Below, in pieces: positions 6,248-64,000 of a DNA stretch of 64,000 nucleotides. This DNA is from Octopus vulgaris (lineage: Eukaryota). The translations under genes were made by a program, and so were the position numbers. The notes beneath the pieces are model-generated. The model was not told the DNA's origin, ran no database searches, and saw only the letters and a program-made list of their open reading frames with translations. The first letter of the stretch is position 1. The number at the start of each line of letters is the position of its first letter. Where the stretch lies: contig OX597816.1 in NCBI GenBank assembly GCA_951406725.2, positions 2,666,001 through 2,730,000 of the forward strand, read 5' to 3'.

Positions 6248-6364
6248 AGTGACCGTATTGGTGACACTGAAGAACTTGATGACACTAAAGGTATGACTGA
6301 AGAAGAAATGAGAGAGCTTATGGAACAAAAAGAAGCCAAATCCAATGCCCAGATTCTAGAAATG
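6248..6364 (+). CDS. PPIL4: PPIL4 exon C
   Basis: gtag|AGT...ATG|gtaagt; SDRIGDTEELDDTKGMTEEEMRELMEQKEAKSNAQILEM; 117 nt, phase 0. Confidence 0.94.
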
Positions 6365-6636
6365 GTAAGTTACCAACGCTTTTAGAATTTCTTTTCAGAA
6401 TTTTGTTTCAAGCGAAATATTGATATTATTTAGTTGCAATGATGTATTTTAAATAAGGAAGTCGTTAGTACTTTGGTTAAAGGTTAAAGGTTTCTTTTCT
6501 ATCCTAAATGGGTTCGATTGGTTTGTCTTGCTTGTTACGTTCACCTGTTTATTGCAACTGAAGACTCCCCACAAATCCGACCATCGTTATAACTTCTCAC
6601 CTCCATCACGAGTTATTTCCCCTGTCTCGTCCCTAG

Positions 6637-6761
6637 GTCGGAGATCTTCCCGACGTCGATGTTGCACCTCCAGAAAACGTTTTGTTTGTCTGCAAGTTGA
6701 ACCCAGTTACTACGGAGGAGGACCTGGAAATTATCTTCTCTCGCTTTGGTAATATTCGCAG
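6637..6761 (+). CDS. PPIL4: PPIL4 exon D (start of RRM)
   Basis: ctag|GTC...CGCAG|gtaagt; [41 protein letters not shown] with RNP2 LFVCKL. Confidence 0.97.
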
Positions 6762-7690
6762 GTAAGTCCTGACTTTCAAGTTCCCATTTTTATTCTTGTG
6801 TCACGAGACAGGCAAGGGTCATTTGTCTGAAGTAAGGCATGGCTGTGGGGTTAAATAAAGGATCTTTCTAGCTACACTAGTTTTGAGTTCAATTCTAGTG
6901 TGTGGCACCTTGGCCAAGACGTTTCTGCTACAGCCCCGACCATAACCTAATGAGTGGAACTGGTGGACAGAAACTGAAAGCAGTTTCTTCTACAGACGTC
7001 TTCATTATTAATTGTTCCCTTTTTCTATGCTTGCATAGATTAGGAGGAGTTTATTGAGAGAGGTTTTCTACAGCTGGATGCCCTTCCTGTTGCCAACCCT
7101 CACCTGTTTCCAAGTAAGGTCATGTTTCCCCTATGGCCAAACATTTTCTTGCAGTATATTGGAAATGAATGACACCGCTTGTATAACAGGGACACTCATT
7201 TACACACTTTCAGTTTCTGTCTATCAAATCCACTCACACGGCTTTCGTTGACATGGGGCAATTACAGAAGATACTTGCTCAAAATGTCACGCTGTGGGAC
7301 TGAACCCAGAGCCATGCTTGTAGGCACTAACACTTCTACTAATTCATTGCCCCAATAATGATAATAATATTGATAATAATAATGATGGGGTCTCCTGTTG
7401 AAGACGGTGTATGAGTTTTCAGCAAAAACTGAACGACCTGCACAAAGGATTAGTTTATAGGGATCAAGCGTACGTGTTGTACGTTAGCTCACTCCCTTCA
7501 TCAAATCGATGACGTTACCTGAACAGGTGCACGTTGTAACAGGTGTCGGGTGATTGCAGATCAATGCGAGATGAAGTGTTTTGCCCATAAACAAAACACA
7601 CCACCCAGTCTAGGAATTGAAACCACAATCTCATGATCATGACTGCAACACACTAACCACTTGGCCATGCGTCCTCACAACAACAACGAC

Positions 7691-7744
<54 letters not shown>

Positions 7745-7815
7745 AAAGGTATTGATGTGTAGGAATTGATTTAATCTGTTTGTCTATTCATATATTTATT
7801 TATATTTTTATTTAG

Positions 7816-7882
7816 CTGCGAAGTGATCAAAGACTCGAAAACTAAAGAATCCCTGCAGTATGCATTTATTGAATTTGAAAAG
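7816..7882 (+). CDS. PPIL4: PPIL4 exon E (RRM RNP1)
   Basis: ttag|C...AAG|gtgaat; (S)CEVIKDSKTKESLQYAFIEFEK. Confidence 0.96.
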
Positions 7883-8320
7883 GTGAATACCATTCTTTTG
7901 TTCTTTGATGAGTTCTTTTTTTTTCCCTTTTTTACCAATCCCATCATTACTAACATCAATTGTCAAACATTTACCATTTATTCATTTACAAACAAATTTT
8001 GTCCACTGTTAAACAATATTCTTTCTGTCTCCTGTTGATAGTCGAAAACATGAAATCAAAATTGACCTGTGATAAATAATAAACTTCACCCCCGTTTTCT
8101 GCATGTATTCTCTTCTGCTTTGACAGTTTGTCCATCTTTTTCTACTTTGACAGTTTGTCTTGACACCTTGTCTCTTTCATCCTTGTTTTCTTTTCTTACT
8201 GAGGTAGCCATGTATCTCCTCTACAATAAGAAACCCGTGCCTCTCTCGCCATCATACTTTACCTCTCAACACCTGGCACAAAGCCACTCCACTTAATACT
8301 ACTCTGTCCCTCTCACTTAA

Positions 8321-9400
8321 CCCTTTCGTTACCAAACCGCCCAAAGCCGCCCGAAAAAAATTTTAGTTAATGTGACCAAACCGCCCAAAGCCGCCCGAAT
8401 TTACCTATTCATATTTAAATGAGAATATCAGAGCAAATCTCTTTAGTACATTCGTGAAAACACGTATTATACTTCGTAAACAGTTCAACTACAGTTTTGT
8501 ACAATAATCGAAGTGTAATTTTAATTCCGTGAATTTTGAGAGATTTTTTTCCGAAATTTGTTCCTATTGTGTTTTCAAAATTTGTAATTCTGACAAAAAA
8601 TGGATACGAATTTCATTATATCAAGCAGCGAGTCAGAATTCGAAGGATTTTCTACTGAAGACCTTCATAAATCTAACTCTATGACTGAAAAAAAAAGCAC
8701 ATGGTATTTGATAACGAATCTGATGTTTCATTTTCCGAAAGTGAAAACAGTGAATTCGAGAGCTCCGACAGCGATAAAGAAAACGAATTGGCACCTGAAT
8801 GGAGTGAAAATTTAAAAACTGTTTCTTTCGGTGATTTTTCTGAAGAAACTGGACCAAGCCACAGACTTTCCCAGAGGAGTAAAGCCTTAGACTATTTCTT
8901 TTTACTTTTTCGAATGAGCCTATTTGAAATCATTACGGCGAAAACGAACAGTTACGCTAAACGTAAACAAAGCGAAAGAAAGGATAGTTTGTTATTTCCC
9001 ATAACCTTAAATGAAATTAAGACTATTTTGCCGTAAATATTATTATGGGTATCAGAAAGTTACCCAGAATAACAAATTCTATCGTAAAATTTTGTTGTAT
9101 ACCCAATTGAATATTAGCTAATAACCCATTTTCTATAGCGATGTTTGAACAAAATTTTAATTTTATATTTTGTTGAATTTACCTGTATCTACCTGCAATT
9201 AGAGTCACTTTGTGACAAAAATTATAGTATAGAATTAGTTGCGAATATTTCATTAAATTATCTTCCAAAAATCAGATTAATATATTGATAAATAAAAGTT
9301 ATAGTTGTTTAATGAAACCAGACTAAATTTATGATTATGTTAGAAATTAATTGAAACACATAAGGGGTGTATTTTGGTCAGAAATATAGTAACAAAAGGG
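8321..9400 (+). mobile_element. Non-autonomous piggyBac-family element in a PPIL4 intron
   Basis: TTAA|CCCTTTCGTTAC ... GTAACAAAAGGG|TTAA; subterminal direct repeat ACCAAACCGCCCAAAGCCGCCCGAA x2; frameshifted N-terminal transposase remnant (SSSESEFEGF..., LDYFFLLF..TNSYA..ITLNEIK). Confidence 0.85.
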
Positions 9401-26027: not shown

Positions 26028-26682
26028 TAGTTAGTTAGTTAGTTAATTTTTTGGCTCAAAAAGCAAAAAGCAAGGCCATATAGGGGGACATGGAGTTATG
26101 TACAGGGTGGTGTTCATGTAAAGAGTTCAGGCCACTTGTGGTCAAGGGAGACTTTGAACTGAGTGGTCGTCGGCATCTTCACCATCTCGTCCGGCAGCTT
26201 ATTCTATGGATCCGCAACCCAGACAGAGAAAGCCCCTCTCCTTTGATTGAGATGAAATCGTCGCAGATAGAGCTTTTCGGAATGACCCCTGGAGCAGGAG
26301 TGAAGAACAGCTCTTTCGAGAGGTTACACTTTCCGCTTATGATGTTGTGAGCAAGAATGAGATCTCCACGGCATCGTCGTTTTTCTAGAGAATAAAGGTC
26401 GAGCGTCTTCAGCCTTTCTTCATAAGACAAATTCTTGAGACCAAGAACCATGCGGGTAGCCAGCTTCTGGACTCTTTCGAGATGCTGTATGTCTTTGAGG
26501 AGATAAGGAGAAGAGACTTGAATCCCGTACTCCAATATGGGTCTCGCCAGCGTGACATAGAGCAGTAGGAATATGGCTGCTGTGAGCATTCCGAATGACC
26601 GTCGAATCAAGAACAGAACTCCGCGTGCTTTGTTGGCAGCATGGACGCACTGGGCCGAAGGCGAAAAGGAGGAATCCACCAA
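26028..26682 (-). mobile_element. CR1-clade LINE 3' fragment with (AACT)n tail
   Basis: ARPILEYG..SPY..KDIQHLERVQKLATRMVLGLKNLSYEERLKTLDLYSLEKRRCRGDLI. Confidence 0.85.
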
Positions 26683-28390
26683 GATTGAACTACAAACTGA
26701 ACTTCCCCTCCCAACAACTGGTTTCTTTTTACAGTCAGATGGACTGAGGCATTTACAGTCTTTGCTAAAAACATACAACTGCTCTCCCCACTTTAAAAAA
26801 AAAAAGCAAGCATAGATTTGCTATATTTTGCAGCAGATACCAAATCAAGAGAATTGACTCTGTTTCCTGATTTTTTTGTTTTTTTTTGTAACTCCCCAAA
26901 TTCTTTTAAAGCATATTTTGTGGGAGGAGACCTAGATTGGCCCCAGTATTTAGCTGGTATCAGCCCTAAGAAAATTTGAAGTGAGAACGTCAAAGAGAAT
27001 AACCAAATTCCATAATGTTGCCATCACCTATGTCAGTGTTTAGAAATTAAGTGAAACTGGATCTGATGTTTCAAATTGAAGAGATCCATCATCATCACCA
27101 TCATTTAACATCCACTTTCCATGCGAGCATGGGTTGGATGGTGTAATGAGCTGGTAAAGCTGGGAACTGAACCCTTGTCTGCTTTGGCATGGTTTCTATA
27201 GCTGGATGTCCTTCTCCCTAACAACAGCCACTTTACAGAAATGGGGACTGAGTGCTTTCTCCATGACACCAGCACCAGTTCTCAACACTCATGCTTTTTA
27301 CGTAGTAATATCATCATCATCATCATCATCGTTTAATGTCCATTTTCCATGCTAGCATGGGTTGGACGGTTCAACTGGGGTCTGGGAAGTCAGGAGGTTG
27401 CGCCAGGCTCCAGTCTGATCTGGCAGTGTTTCTACAGCTGGATGCCCTTCCTAACGCCAACCACTCTGTGAGTGAAGTAGGTGCATTTTACATGCAGCCG
27501 GCACAAGTGCCAGGGGAGGCTGGCAGCAGCCACGATTGGTCGGTGCTTTTTACGTGCCACTGGCACAGAAGCCAGTCAAGGTGGTGCTGGCATCGGCCAC
27601 GTTCGGATGGTGCTTTTTACATGCCACTGGCACAGGTATCACAACTACAATTTCCATTCTCTAATAATTATTTCTACTACACACTACAAGGCCTGAAACT
27701 TTGAGGGAGGGGGCTGGTCTATTACATTGACTCTGGTATTTGACTGGTCCCTATTTTATTTTCCCCCAAGAGGATAAAAAGCTAAATTGATGTTGGCAAC
27801 ATTTGAACTCAAAGCATGCAAAGCAGTTTGTCTCGTCTGGTTAATGATTCTATGAGCTCAGCGCCTTCTTTGTCTCAAAGCAAACTGATGAGATGCCAGG
27901 CCAGCAGAGACGTTGGCACATCGGGAAAATGTTTTGTGCCATTCCGGTTGTTTTTAGGTTTTGAGTTCAAATTCTGTTGAGATTGACTTGGCCTTTCATC
28001 CTTTTAGGGTTGATGAAATTAAGTACCAGTTGCATACTGGGGTCGATGTAATCGACTTCCTCTCCCCAAAACTTGCTGGTCTTGCGTCAAAATTTGAAAC
28101 CAATATAATAATAACCGATACAAAGGTTGGTTGGTTGATTTCTCCATTCTTTACGGTGGAGAGAGGGAGAGTGACACAGAGAGAGCTAACATAAATGGTA
28201 CTGGACGAGTGCATATACTAGGCTTGGTGCTATGCAATGAGTAAAAGATCATTACACATATAATGAAAAAAAAAAAGACTCACAAACATAGATGAGGGGG
28301 AGTAAATGTCAGAGTAATGGAAGAAGTTTGAAGAACATCTTAAGAATGAATACATGTACATTGTGTTTTTCTTGTATTTGATTTTATTAA

Positions 28391-38696: not shown

Positions 38697-39535
38697 TATA
38701 TACATATACGACGGGCTTCTTCGAGTTTCCGTATACCAAATCCACTCACAAGACTTTGGTCGGCCCGAAGCTATAATAGAAGACACTTGTCCAAGGTTCC
38801 ACGCAGTGGGACTGAACCCGGGAGCATGTCATTGGTAAGCAAGCTACTTACCACACAGATGTTTTATAAGTACTGACGCGCGAAACTCTCGACCCTAAAT
38901 ATTGATAAAAATATACCCATTATTTGAGTTCAGTTTTTCCTGTTTCCATCACATACATGCATATACAACACAATACACACACACACACATATGATGATAG
39001 CTATCCACTTGTGACCGACAAAGACCCTCACTGACCATTGTCCATGCAAGATGTCTGTGAAGCTCAAGAACGAGGTTATTGCACCAGCAGTCATCAGCTT
39101 CATTCGAGTTCGTGTTCGCTGATTCCATGCTGGCCGCGGTGCCCTTCTACTCGGACGGGCATTGTATAGTCATCTCCCTGGCAATGGCAAAACCTAAGTT
39201 TTAGGTCCAATAAAGCTAGGCTTTCACAGAACCCCATAAGCCCTCTCAACCCTACTGGAGGCAAGCCAAGGGAAGATATCTGGTGCCAATATGGGTCGTA
39301 GGCTCAGGAATGTGGGAGGTCTATAGCGCAAGCAAAAGATCCCCAAAATGTTCAATGCCATTTCTTGCATATCTGTTTTTAAACAATTTTTTAAATATCA
39401 GAGTGACCTTCTCCTAGAGACATGCTTTAACAAAAGTTAAGGGCTGCCTCGCTCCCGCTGGTCTTCCAGTACATCGGACACCAATTTCTGGAGGTCCGTG
39501 CTATTCCTAGATAATCGTTGAACTTACACTAGGTT

Positions 39536-39831
39536 ATACAGTTCTATATTTAAGAGATGGGTTCTCATTCCTAAGGGCATATGGCGTAGTGGTTAAGAGC
39601 GCGGGCTACTAACCCCAAGATTTCGAGTTCGATTCCAGGCCGTGACCTGAATAATAATTATAATAATAATAATAAATAATAATGATATCATCTAAAAATA
39701 CCTTAGGAATGAGAATTCAGGTTCGAAATTTCCCCAAGACACTTGATGAAGGCTGGAGGGTATATCAGCCGAAATGTTGTGTTAACAACAAATAAGATGA
39801 GGACAAATATCTGTCAAATGTAAATAATGTA
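39536..39831 (+). mobile_element. tRNA-headed element with hammerhead-like 3' region and 11-bp TSD
   Basis: TSD TACACTAGGTT at 39525-39535 and 39832-39842; A box TGGCGTAGTGG and B box AGTTCGATTCC; hammerhead-like motif at 39738-39783. Confidence 0.75.
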
Positions 39832-40475
39832 TACACTAGGTTCATCCGGGATTTTATCAGGTCTTTTTCTCAATCACCGACGACCCCGACCATACAACAG
39901 ATTGTCCTGGATTCCATGTTACTAGTAGCACTTCACAAGTGACTTGACAACCTGTTGCATGATTAAGTTGCCGGTGACTAAACTGGCACCTCCACCAGGC
40001 TAACTTGGCGAGGAGGGTTGCTAAAAAACCAGCAGGACTAAAAAACGATCACTCGAAAGGATGGATGAACCCAGTGTTGGTTCAACGACTACCAAGAAAT
40101 AACAAGGGGCCGTCAGACATTCTGGGTTGGTGTCCGGCGTGCTGCAAGACCACCGGGAGGCGCGAGCAACCCCTTGCTTTTGTTAAAGCATGTCTCTAGG
40201 AGAAAGTCACTCTGATATAAACCAGACAAGCAGGGAATAGCATTGGACATTTTAGGGATCTTTTACTTGCAATTGAGGTCATAGTGCTCCCAATTCCTGA
40301 GCTTGCGACTCATATTAGCTCCGGATATCTTGCGTCAGCTTGTCCATCGATTATGTCAATAGGACTGAGTGGGGGTGTTGTGCAAGCCTTATTCGACCCC
40401 AAATTTTGCAGAGACCAGGCATTGTGTTGTCAGTAAGAATCATACTCGTCTACGAGTTGACAGCTATCATATATA

Positions 40476-48164: not shown

Positions 48165-49197
48165 ATGGAGTGTGGGAGACAGACAGTATGTTGTGTAAGT
48201 GAAGTGCTTCTGTTAGTGTGTGTGAAGAGACAGAGAGAGTAATGTGTGAAAGAGAGAGATAACTGAAATTTTTTACTCGGTTTATGTGTATATGTATGTA
48301 TGCATGTATGTGTGTGTGTGTGTGTGTGTATGTATGTGTGTGTGTATGTATGTATTTATATATAAAAGAAAGGTTGTATGTCTGTCTACTCCGATTTAGA
48401 TTCCTAACTACTCCCACATTTTGCGATGCAGTTTAACCAAAACCGGGTATCTTATAGTCGTGATTCATATCGAGCCCTTCTGGGTATTAGCGCGCGTCTA
48501 CGATGAGTCTATGATTTTACAAATAATTTACCATCATTTTTTTCCATTTTAATGCATATTTTTTAAAATAAACGGAAGTAACTCTCAAACTTCACACCAA
48601 TATGCGTGCTCATATGCGACGTAATATCACATCACCAGCATTTCCTCACACCCTCCTTGCACTTGGCGAAGGCAAAATACCAGGGGATGAAAATGGTAAT
48701 ATTGCCATCGATTCCATTTGTACCATTGTTAAGACGCCTTCTGATCTCAGAGATGCAGTGTTCCCAGATTTACAAGCTAATTATCAGAATATGGATTGGA
48801 TTGGCAAAAAGGCTATACTGGCCCCGAGGAATAAAACTGTTCACCATATTAATGATGAAATGCTAAAACTCATTCCTGGGGAAGTCGATGTATATCAGTC
48901 TATCGATACAACTCCTGACCCAGAGGACGTCATCAACTATCCAATAGAGGTACTCAATTCCTTTGAGCACCCCGGACTACCACCACACTTTCTCAAACTT
49001 AAAGTTAGTGCCCCTATAATGCTCATCAGAAATTTGGTTCCCCCAAAACAATGCAATGGCACACGTTTGGCGTTAAGTCCTTATCTCCCACCGTAAGCTT
49101 ATTTCAATATTTGCCTGAATAATCATCATAATTCAGTGCAATCATTAACAGTACTTTCAAGCAATTCAGCCCCGAGCAACGCCGGGCAATTCTGCTA

Positions 49198-57912: not shown

Positions 57913-60628
57913 TGTTGTTGGCATCCTTTTTGTCTCGGGAGACAATGGAGTTGCGCATAAAATAATCTAGTCCGGCTTTTACATTGCATGTCCTAATACA
58001 TCTCCTGCTGTGGCTGTGTAGTCCTATATGGACAAACACTCCCCCTGGCAGGTTCCACAAATGTAGCGAAGACTTTGCCTGGCTGGTTGTAATGTCATAC
58101 TTTCTTGTTGACGTCTTTTCTTGTCTTTCCATTTCTCCTTTCTCACTATGTCACTCCTTTGTGTTCCCTCTTTTACGGTACGTCGCCAATCTCCACGGTT
58201 GCTGGCAACTCCTTCCAAGTTGGCAATATTGATGTTGCAGGCATTCATGTCCCTTTTGCAAACATCCTTGTATCGTAAGAACGGTCTTCCCACAGACCTA
58301 GTGCCCCTAGCAAACTCTCTGTTAAGTATGTCCTTGGGGATTCTGCCATCTTCCATACGGCTAACATGTCGAAGCCATCTCATACGTCTTTGTGTGAGGA
58401 GTGTAAACATGCTTGGTATTCCTGCTTGCTTGAGGACATCTTTGTCGGGGACATGATTCTGCCATTTGATGCGAAGGATTTTCCGGAGGCAGCGCAGGTG
58501 AAAGATATTTAGGCGACGTATGGCGTCGTATGGCGTGTGTATGGCATCCAAGTCTCACTTCCATACAGTAGAGTGCTGAGTACACATGCCTGGTAAACCT
58601 TCATTTGTGTGGTTTTGGTCAGCTTATTGTTGTCCCATGCCCATTTGGAGAGTTGGGCCATCACAGCAGCTGCCTTGCCAATGCGTATATGTAGGTGACG
58701 GTAGAGCTAAGATAGGTAAAATTCTCCACCTCTTGTAGTCTGTGGTCTCCTATATGTATGTTTGGGATGTCCGATGTAGCCTGACCCATGATGTTGGTCT
58801 TCTTGAGGCTGATAACTAAGCCAAAGTCGCTACATGCTTGGTCAAAACAGTTGATGAGCCTTTGTAGGGCTTCTTCTGTGTGTGATACCAGAGCGGCATC
58901 ATCAGCAAATAGCATCTCCTTGATCAGGACGCTTCTGATTTTGGTCTTGGCACGCAGACGCGAGAGATTGAACAGTTCCCCATCACTTCTACTGTGCAGA
59001 AACACTCCATCATCTGATGTCACAAAGGCATGTGACAGCAGCAGCGAGAAGAAGATGCCAAATAATGTAGGAGCAGGGACACAACCTTGCTTTACCCCAT
59101 TTTTTATTTGGAAGGCGGCTGATGTTGAACCATTGTGCTGTATGGTGCCTTGCATATCATCATGGAAAGATGTGATGATCCTCAGCAGCTTTGGTGGACA
59201 TCCGATTTTTTAGAGCAGGATGAAGAGGCCTTTTCTACTTACCAAGTCAAAGGCCTTTGTCAGATCAATGAAGGCCATATATAATGGCATTTTCTGCTCT
59301 CTGGACTTCTCCGGAAGTTGGCGTATGGAGAATATAATGTCAATAGTTGATCTGCTTCTTCTAAAGCCACACTGCAATTCTGGATAAATTCGAGAAGCAA
59401 GCAGTTGCAGCCTGGACAGGATAATACGAGCAGAGGCCTTAGAAGAGATATTCCAGAGCTTAGAAGAGATATTCCACGGTAATTGTCACAATCACCACGG
59501 TCACCTTTGTTTTTGTAAAGCGTAATGATGTTAGCATCCCGCATATCCTGAGGGACTGTACCCTCTTCCCAGCACTGACACAGAAGCTCATGAATGTGCC
59601 GAAGCAGGATGGTGTTTTTGCCGGTTTTGATGATCTCTAAGGGGATGCCGTCTTTTCCCGGAGCCTTGTTACTTGCTAGGGAATCAATAGCCTTGGTGAG
59701 CTCTACTATAGATGGCAGACTGTGAAGTTCACACATGACTGGCAAGATCTTGACACCCTCGATTGCAGCCTCAGCTACCGTGGTCTCTCGTGAGTAGAGA
59801 TCATGGTAGTACTCCACCCATCTATCCATTTGCTTGCTTTGGTCCTTGATGAGATCCCCAGTAGTTGATTTCAGAGGGGCTGACTTGGTTGCGGATGGAC
59901 CGAGGGCCTTCTTCAAACCGGCATATATCCCACGGTTGTCGCCACTGTCAGCAGCTGACTGGATACTCTGACAGATTTCCTGCCAATACCTATTTGCACA
60001 GCGTCTGGCAGTCAGTTGGGTTTTATCTCTTGCCTTTCTGAGTTCTTCGAGTGACTTTATAGAAGAATCAATCTTGTATTACATCAGAGCTGCACGCTTT
60101 GTTTCGATAACTGTTTCCAGCTCTGAGAGCCCAGCACTGAACAAAATCTGGGTTTTGCCTTTCTCTCATGCCGAAAGTATCTATTGATGTGGTATACAAA
60201 GCTTCCCTGATATAATTCCACCTACTTTCAGCAGAGGTGGTTGGGCAGCTACTGAGGGCAACTTTGTTAGAAACAGCAAAACATTGTCGCAGTGTAGGGT
60301 CGGAGGTTCTGGCAGTGTTAATGCCTGGTCGGCCCATTTTCTTGAAGTGATGGACTTTCTTAGGCAGAATCCTCACCCTGCTTCTTATTAGTGAATGATC
60401 CGTGTCACAATCCGCGCTGTGGTAACTACGGGTCAGTCGAACATAATTCAGAAAGGGTCTTCGTGTAATGATGAGATCCAGCTGATGCCAGTGGTGAGAT
60501 CTTGGATGTCTCCAAGATGCCTTGTGGGATGTCTTGTTGGCAAAGAACTTGTTGGTGATGCACAGGTTATGGTATGTGCAAAATTCAAGCAGTCTCTGGT
60601 CGTTGTCATTCATGTTGCCAATACCAAA
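57913..60628 (-). mobile_element. RTE-clade LINE, 5'-truncated and frameshifted (APE end plus RT)
   Basis: [34 protein letters not shown]; KAPGKDGIP; NYRGISLLS; GVKQGCVPAPTLF; FADDAAL; RWLRHVSRMEDGRIPK; (CAA)n tail. Confidence 0.92.
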
Positions 60629-60696
60629 ACACATACACTTACATATATACATACATATATATACGATCGATTTGTTTCAGTTCCTGTCTACGAAAT

Positions 60697-63038: not shown

Positions 63039-64000
63039 TCAGGTCATCCCATAAGTTCTGTCCGAATTTTGGATAAAGAATCCAAGTGATCAAATGTTAT
63101 ATTTAATTGAAGGTTAATCATCAATGTACTTTCCCTGATTATCTATGACTTACTTCCATCTATTTACAAGCTTTTTAATTCCATCAATGTAAAACTCTTT
63201 TGGTTTCAAAGCGAAGAACTCTGAAATGTCAGGTTCGACCTCCTCCTGGCTTGCGAAAGTTGTGTCCCCCTAATAATTCTGTAAACTATGGAACAAATGG
63301 TATCCTGAAGGAGTAAGGTCGGGAGAGTAAGTTGGATGAAGAAATTTTTCCAAACCGACCTCTTCGATCTTCTGTGATGTGATCTTTGCAGTGTGGGGTT
63401 GCGCATTGTCCTGATGAAACATCACTCGTTTTCGACTCACTAAAGCGGCTCTTTTTCCCTTCAAAGCTTGGTTCAAACACTCTAATTGCTGACAGTAGAT
63501 TTGAGCATTGATTGTTGCATTAGGTGGTAACAATATAAAGTGAATTACGCCTTTGCAATCGCACCAGATAGAGTAGAACCTTTTTCCCATGAAGTTCCTT
63601 TTTCGGTTGTGGTTGAGCATTTTCCCTTTTACCAAGCCACTGTTTACGACGTTTAACATTTCGATAGAAAATCCATTTTTCGTCACAAGTCTATCGAAAA
63701 AGGGTGAAATGGGTTTGCGAGAATGGAGAGAAGAGGAGATGTCAACTCGGGATTTGCGGTTGCTTTCGGACAATACATGAGGCACCTATTTTCCAAGTTT
63801 AGGAATCTTTCCAAGTTGTTGAAGATGACGATGAACTGTTGTATGGTTTGAAGTAAGCTTTATTGCCAATTCTTCAACTGATAATGACGGATTTTCTTCA
63901 AGTAATGCCTCAAGGAGCTTATCATCAAACTCAACTGGACATCCTATTCGATCTTCATCTTCAATTTTGCAAACGATCTCCTGCAAGTTCTTTCATTCAA
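63039..64000 (-). mobile_element. Frameshifted mariner transposase, runs off the window end
   Basis: FHQDNAQPHTA...HPTYSPDLTPSGYHLFHSLQNY; HTH region LSVEELAIKLTSNHTTVHRHLQQLGK. Confidence 0.92.

Follow-up and report, generated by a model that had tools for sequence, protein, structure and literature searches.

The tRNA-headed, hammerhead-bearing repeat at 39525-39842 of the octopus window (the whole 64,000-nucleotide stretch of DNA analysed here) is a copy of the pseudo-LTR (pLTR) of a 2.6-kb Penelope-like element (PLE), a pLTR that includes the head. The short repeats are not a SINE moved by a partner LINE; their partner is a PLE that itself holds the whole unit. The original prediction, of a SINE whose 3' part derives from a PLE, is right about the 3' part, which is PLE sequence, but not about the composite origin that it implied, as no tail has been borrowed and the head belongs to the PLE's own pLTR. 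We consider the window copy to be a stand-alone copy of this autonomous element's tRNA-headed pLTR, probably derived from a short RNA polymerase III (Pol III) transcript that was copied by the reverse transcriptase (RT)-endonuclease of the PLE. The features of the window copy are as follows.

39525-39535, plus strand: left target-site duplication (TSD), 11 bp, exact direct repeat TACACTAGGTT
39536-39559, minus strand: inverted 3' terminal 'tail' of the family (the PLE tail, and also early codons of the PLE ORF), its 24 nt matching the tail in copy L018 at 100%
39558-39576, minus strand: inverted internal piece, 19 nt, reverse complement of about 39701-39719
39575-39649, plus strand: tRNA-like head, with an A box at 39582-39592 and a B box at 39625-39636; likely Pol III promoter
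39650-39684, plus strand: (AAT)n tract, differing in length among copies
39709-39831, plus strand: opening 41 codons of the PLE polyprotein, with one premature stop in this copy
39738-39783, plus strand: minimal type I hammerhead motif, comprising stem I (GACAC/GTGTT), core, stem II (GGCTG/CAGCC) and a palindromic stem III
39832-39842, plus strand: right TSD, 11 bp, exact repeat of TACACTAGGTT, abutting the tail-less 3' end
40063-40100 (within 40040-40130), minus strand: paralogous arm of the inverted repeat in the host sequence, where the target site is empty

The predicted 11-bp TSD is exact at both ends, and we regard it as a true duplication because the other arm of the host repeat has a single copy of the target site, leading straight into the right flank. 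The host sequence round the insertion is a 72%-identical inverted repeat (arms 39302-39535 and 40068-40302) of more GC-rich sequence. The 15-nt inverted pair reported in the leader (39562-39576 and 39701-39715) is also exact, at 100% identity, but the description of the leader was too narrow: not just its last 15 nt but all 39 nt are element-derived, being inverted tail followed by inverted internal piece. The copy's own 3' end is tail-less, and the tail sits on the inverted leader instead. Head, (AAT)n tract and hammerhead-like motif were each located where predicted, and the A box (TGGCGTAGTGG) and B box (GAGTTCGATTCC) are spaced as in tRNA.

Among ten host tRNAs, an incomplete comparison set, the head is nearest to tRNA-Arg(TCG), with 38 of 53 positions identical and a score of 46, where none of 300 shuffles exceeded 28. 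It is not a full tRNA; ARAGORN detected none at 13 head loci, and ARAGORN and Rfam returned neither a tRNA nor a hammerhead in the window copy or L002. We think the head likely to be a Pol III promoter that gives rise to the many short, SINE-like copies. The octopus SINEs OR1, OR2 and OK (1994) are reportedly of tRNA-Arg origin, and the short form may be listed as a SINE in Repbase, Dfam or SINEBase or among these 1994 elements. Locus L212 (138-2854) has a run of seven tRNA genes in 3 kb, mostly tRNA-Cys.

The hammerhead was predicted to lie two core changes from the consensus, and this is borne out by the family: at both positions where the window copy departs from the core, C is the commonest letter (92% and 73%), so that the family core reads CTGA(T/A)GA...GAAACGTT (column counts, 212-234 aligned copies), the N of CUGANGA being T in 76% and A in 22%. 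The commonest letters supply the CUGANGA, GAAA and NUH core elements with stems I and II, which fold (z -2.1), while stem III is a short palindrome, as in minimal PLE hammerheads; the whole core survives in 64 of the 207 copies that span it. By the established consensus for hammerheads, cleavage is predicted between 39778 and 39779, where RNA-seq read ends show no pile-up. In the window copy the hammerhead is likely to be dead, and elsewhere in the family it would need to dimerise, or have the aid of a protein, in order to cut; minimal PLE hammerheads are described, in the accessible part of one report, as functioning as dimers with low activity (PMC4209133). Two loci, L067 and L073, carry short head-less tandems of hammerhead and tail, the latter with an ORF start as well, that resemble incipient retrozymes. 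A hammerhead-like motif of another kind, whose stem II is longer, lies beside another PLE family on the reverse strand of L099, near 6467.

The segment 39575-39831 belongs to a high-copy family. Searching the 2.8-Gb genome yielded 3953 first-look candidates, a figure that is not a copy number, and 40 of them were scored; every locus set used here consists of best-scoring matches and not of random draws. Head, AAT tract and hammerhead form one unit at all 30 retrieved loci, with 88-93% identity to the window copy. The link between head and tail, on which the original prediction depended, holds widely: the hammerhead body lies within 250 nt of the head in 79 of 88 stand-alone copies and 41 of 47 PLE-linked ones. 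Across 110 pieces in 58 loci the 5' ends gather at the head, and the 3' ends form two groups separated by about 30 nt. The repeat has the traits of a SINE in being short and non-coding and in having a tRNA-derived head with A and B boxes. Related sequence was found in public sequencing runs of six organisms (A to F), and none of the runs listed as carrying the stretch is recorded as RNA. In or beside the (AAT)n of two copies (L079, 1875-2413; L082, 903-1441) there is a 540-bp repeat, 92% identical between them, which is perhaps another element that targets AAT repeats.

The coding partner was recognised through the flanks of tail-selected copies, in which the tail ran into shared coding sequence at two loci. 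Its order is ORF stop, about 30 nt, head, (AAT)n, hammerhead and a 32-nt tail. In the near-complete copy L141 a partial pLTR precedes an RT ORF (Pfam RVT_1, E 5.8e-8) whose C-terminal part is endonuclease-like, and the head-to-tail unit follows some 30 nt after the stop codon. Among 29 RT-selected loci the end of the ORF is reached in 17, every one of which runs on into the head, and the other 12 break off earlier; neither another 3' end nor a PLE without the head was encountered among the 29. Because the ORF runs into the head in L141 and in all 17 of these loci, the 'SINE' must be the pLTR of the coding element. The ORF-head junction is spanned by contigs of organisms A, D and E, and by none among the matches listed for F. 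A search for an autonomous PLE sharing the tail had been suggested with the original prediction; the 2.6-kb element has not only the tail but the whole head-to-tail unit. The repeat and the ORF also overlap at the other end, as the ORF starts at the ATG at 39709, inside the repeat, and its frame passes through hammerhead and tail. The tail leads in frame into the ORF in L023 and L073, and the frame extends in L143, where from the hammerhead-encoded PKRCVNN on it matches an 847-aa relative, P0019 (40% over 211 aa, E 7e-47). Partial tandems, made up of pLTR and ORF start, turned up on searching with the coding sequence next to the tail.

All 72 protein homologues bear PF26215 or PF28514, domains that we take to mark PLEs, and three of the 72 have the GIY-YIG domain PF01541. 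The nearest relatives (P0001-P0022) show 54-69% identity. The decayed C-terminal fragment of L141 has no Pfam score, and it contains a Y-x-G-E-T motif together with two Cys and two His residues. Domain order, a short linker lacking a zinc-finger motif and the overlap of ORF and hammerhead all point to a PLE of Penelope/Poseidon type. A pLTR, partial tandems, inverted 5'-truncated arms and a pLTR hammerhead overlapping the ORF start are traits of PLEs, and each is present here. The family looks inactive now because no intact ORF was found among the copies examined, which are 80-93% identical and have a longest open frame of 569 aa (L277). Other PLE families, drawn from a GIY-YIG search of the genome, were rejected as partners, the tail being common to none of 20 extended loci. 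The same search brought out a young PLE family (16 of the 150 matches listed) with intact 781-aa ORFs (L091, 1245-3587; L092, 1164-3506) and a long tandem-repeat 3' UTR, in which no canonical CTGANGA...GAAAC motif lies within 9 kb.

The insertion marks of the short copies are those of PLEs. Inverted partial ends, a check suggested with the original prediction, occur in 53 of 87 insertion units, in which both orientations are present; TSD scores of at least 10 were obtained for 29 of the 87, compared with 5 of 150 swapped-flank controls, and TSD lengths are mostly 11-15 bp. Of 50 head-to-head pairs, 37 carry the tail on one arm and not the other, two have it on both arms and one lacks it altogether; ten are unclassed. 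This distribution, like the 3' clusters about 30 nt apart, corresponds to the one-sided 30-40 nt tail that is described for PLEs along with inverted 5'-truncated arms, in the part of the source available (PMC8557442). The window copy, its sense end tail-less and its inverted leader bearing the tail, conforms to this pattern. Inverted arms, one-arm tails and TSDs of this length thus match the PLE pattern, in agreement with the proposal that the repeat is mobilised by a PLE.

What RNA is copied can be addressed from the 5' ends. Among 29 head-selected copies, 25 start within about 20 nt upstream of the head, most commonly at -7 (nine copies), and four run on into the ORF. Truncation at the rate seen further upstream (mean extension 269 nt, 29 loci) would put 9% of ends there, and the pile-up has a probability of about 1e-8 even at five times that rate (computed with 26 of 29). 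The stand-alone 5' ends retain bases upstream of tRNA position 1. Cleavage by RNase P would have removed these bases and so is not the origin of the ends, whereas initiation by Pol III would include them. Pol III terminates at TTTT, and along 2634 nt of PLE sense strand (162 pieces) no TTTT site is common to 20% or more of copies. L141 has none, against 3.6-5.7 in shuffles, and nine other long copies have 0, 0, 0, 0, 1, 1, 1, 1 and 4 (the last being L245). Synonymous shuffling of two copies gave P values of 0.016 and 0.064 for the deficit, and six control ORF sets have 3-9 runs, matching expectation. None of 13 conserved T3 sites in the family reaches T4, compared with 40 of 145 in controls taken from five stretches of other PLEs and a single LINE-like one (P 0.015; Fisher 0.04), and the pooled rate is 0.5 TTTT per kb against 1.5-6.2 in controls. 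The deficit is modest and suggestive, not decisive. No second Poseidon-like or head-less family of the same clade was found to serve as control, all 30 matches to a distant relative being the same family. Nine distant relatives in metagenome contigs, two with a hammerhead and none with the A/B-box pattern, have high T-run counts; they were not used because their regions are approximate and AT-richer. From organism B, three RNA-seq runs that appear to be unstranded contained 6273-8546 reads apiece, of which 73-74% continue into other sequence; no free transcript, pile-up of starts or ends, or circular joint was seen among them. On the sequence evidence we judge a Pol III origin of the short copies likely.

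We propose a mechanism in which the A and B boxes would recruit Pol III, the RNA would start a few bases upstream of the head, and transcription of each copy would continue until the first TTTT of the flanking sequence. The short RNA would then, in all likelihood, be copied into a new site by the PLE's own RT-endonuclease, which would start cDNA synthesis inside the RNA, at one or other edge of the tail; two such internal starts are shown for the Poseidon element of the anole, PAc of Anolis, in the accessible text (PMC11167929). No defined RNA 3' end would be needed because synthesis would begin internally. A second priming event or fold-back would make the inverted arm, which in the window copy would have entailed the tail and then a jump to the internal piece, and staggered cuts would yield the TSD of 11-15 bp. 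With a pLTR placed upstream of an ORF, this promoter would also produce full-length RNA, which Pol III could do because the unit is without TTTT.

The principal rival is an ordinary PLE transcribed by Pol II, in which the tRNA piece is a passenger in the 3' UTR and the short copies are 5'-truncated, their ends set by fold-back at a small five-pair hairpin at the 5' boundary (TGCCC-AC-GGGCA) and a CATATG palindrome at the head's edge. The hairpin alone could cause such truncation, and it is the main competing cause of the pile-up; many junctions can be read as fold-back at it, short and long copies show no subfamily differences, 5'-truncated copies with inverted arms are common among PLEs (PMC8557442), and Penelope of D. 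virilis has a TATA-less, LINE-like internal promoter (PMC2377424), as far as the available parts of these sources go. However, copies lacking any inversion end at the same place (for example L181, L186, L187 and L203), and fold-back priming itself requires a free cDNA 3' end there, which the 5' end of an RNA would supply. The improbability of the pile-up under a raised truncation rate also weighs against it, and the intact A and B boxes and the TTTT deficit are left unaccounted for. We therefore think it unlikely that Pol II transcription and truncation explain the short copies.

Our preferred reading, of short Pol III transcripts from the PLE's own pLTRs, has also to be set against a true SINE lineage with its own masters, a tRNA head joined to a 5'-truncated PLE end and amplified in trans, which was later taken back as a pLTR by template switching. 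The excess of short over long copies among the heads would suit this, template jumps between pLTR pieces are common in the family, and the SINE definition of a head plus partner-derived body fits, at least as worded in the accessible portion of PMC3531059. Nevertheless, the 88 stand-alone and 47 PLE-linked copies differ at only two columns (p<=0.002), neither of them fixed, and no fixed diagnostic position divides them, so the stand-alone copies seem to form no lineage apart from the autonomous partner; their 5' ends, moreover, retain bases of the PLE's UTR, and none of the 29 RT-selected loci shows a head-less PLE. We regard such a lineage as improbable. Least credible, and in our estimate very improbable indeed, is a non-LTR retrozyme spreading through hammerhead-cut circular RNA from tandem arrays: the type I hammerhead is derived from a PLE pLTR and a few short tandem units exist (L067 and L073), but copies are mostly dispersed monomers or inverted pairs with head-to-tail and not cut-site boundaries, and the RNA reads list neither an end pile-up nor an end-to-start, circular joint.

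A more far-reaching proposal, which is possible although the balance of our judgement is tipped slightly against it, is that the PLE captured a tRNA-Arg-like promoter, purged TTTT from its 2.6-kb sense strand, is transcribed from end to end by Pol III and makes its own SINE from every downstream pLTR. The need to translate an uncapped Pol III RNA counts against the Pol III reading. If Pol III does make the full-length RNA, coding retrotransposons could no longer be assumed to depend on Pol II (or Pol I co-transcription), and the translation of uncapped RNA would become a concrete question. SINE partners are normally LINEs; here a PLE is named as the mobiliser of a tRNA-headed, SINE-like family, and a route to SINE birth is indicated in which promoter and tail both come from one coding element. 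From this follows a testable hypothesis on how repeats that combine tRNA and hammerhead, Sm-alpha among them, arose, and repeat libraries probably divide the present family between 'SINE' and 'Penelope'. Elsewhere in the window are open frames that we take to belong to an RTE-type LINE (58024-60676, minus strand), a mariner transposase (63270-63785, minus), a Helitron helicase (48572-49096, plus) and a CR1-type RT (26179-26820, minus).

The literature searched, which excluded most subscription papers, contained no tRNA-headed or Pol III-driven autonomous PLE and no SINE with a PLE partner, and two papers on cephalopod repeats, in their accessible parts, do not mention a tRNA-headed PLE family. 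The octopus element otherwise closely resembles Penelope/Poseidon PLEs as portrayed in the available sections of two papers (PAc of Anolis, PMC11167929; PMC8557442), having a single ORF with RT and a C-terminal endonuclease-like region, an ORF start that overlaps the pLTR hammerhead, a one-sided tail of 30-40 nt, and both partial tandems and arms that are inverted and 5'-truncated. It differs in the A/B-box head of its pLTR, the pile-up of 5' ends and a sense strand with no conserved TTTT; the PLE promoter described for D. virilis Penelope is internal, TATA-less and LINE-like in the accessible account (PMC2377424). TRIMp3 elements (Cassandra, Helenus and Ajax) similarly place a small-RNA-derived Pol III promoter within a terminal repeat, but according to the part available they are non-autonomous LTR elements whose autonomous partners are expected to use Pol II (PMC10886601), whereas the octopus head is in a coding element. 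Animal non-LTR retrozymes, too, are non-coding, derive from PLE pLTRs and contain a type I hammerhead, yet they are defined by tandem arrays and circular RNA, and a tRNA head is not described in the accessible parts of the reports (bioRxiv 10.64898/2026.07.22.740005; PMC7761336).

Two kinds of short repeat also bear comparison. Under the SINEBase definition, as given in the available text (PMC3531059), tRNA SINEs with partner-derived tails are, like the octopus copies, shorter than 700 bp, with a tRNA head and a body identical to the partner's 3' end; the octopus partner, however, is a PLE and not a LINE and has the head too, and the short copies lack a simple-repeat 3' tail. The combination of tRNA head and hammerhead had already been reported for Sm-alpha and Sj-alpha of Schistosoma, which in the accessible parts of the papers are tRNA-derived, apparently transcribed by Pol III, equipped with a type I hammerhead and present in very high copy number (PMC6765202, PMC2770079). 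There the repeats are in tandem and released by self-cleavage, and the partner is unnamed in those parts; the octopus copies, by contrast, are dispersed, with TSDs and inverted arms, they have the minimal kind of hammerhead found in PLEs, and the unit also forms the pLTR of a coding element identified here.
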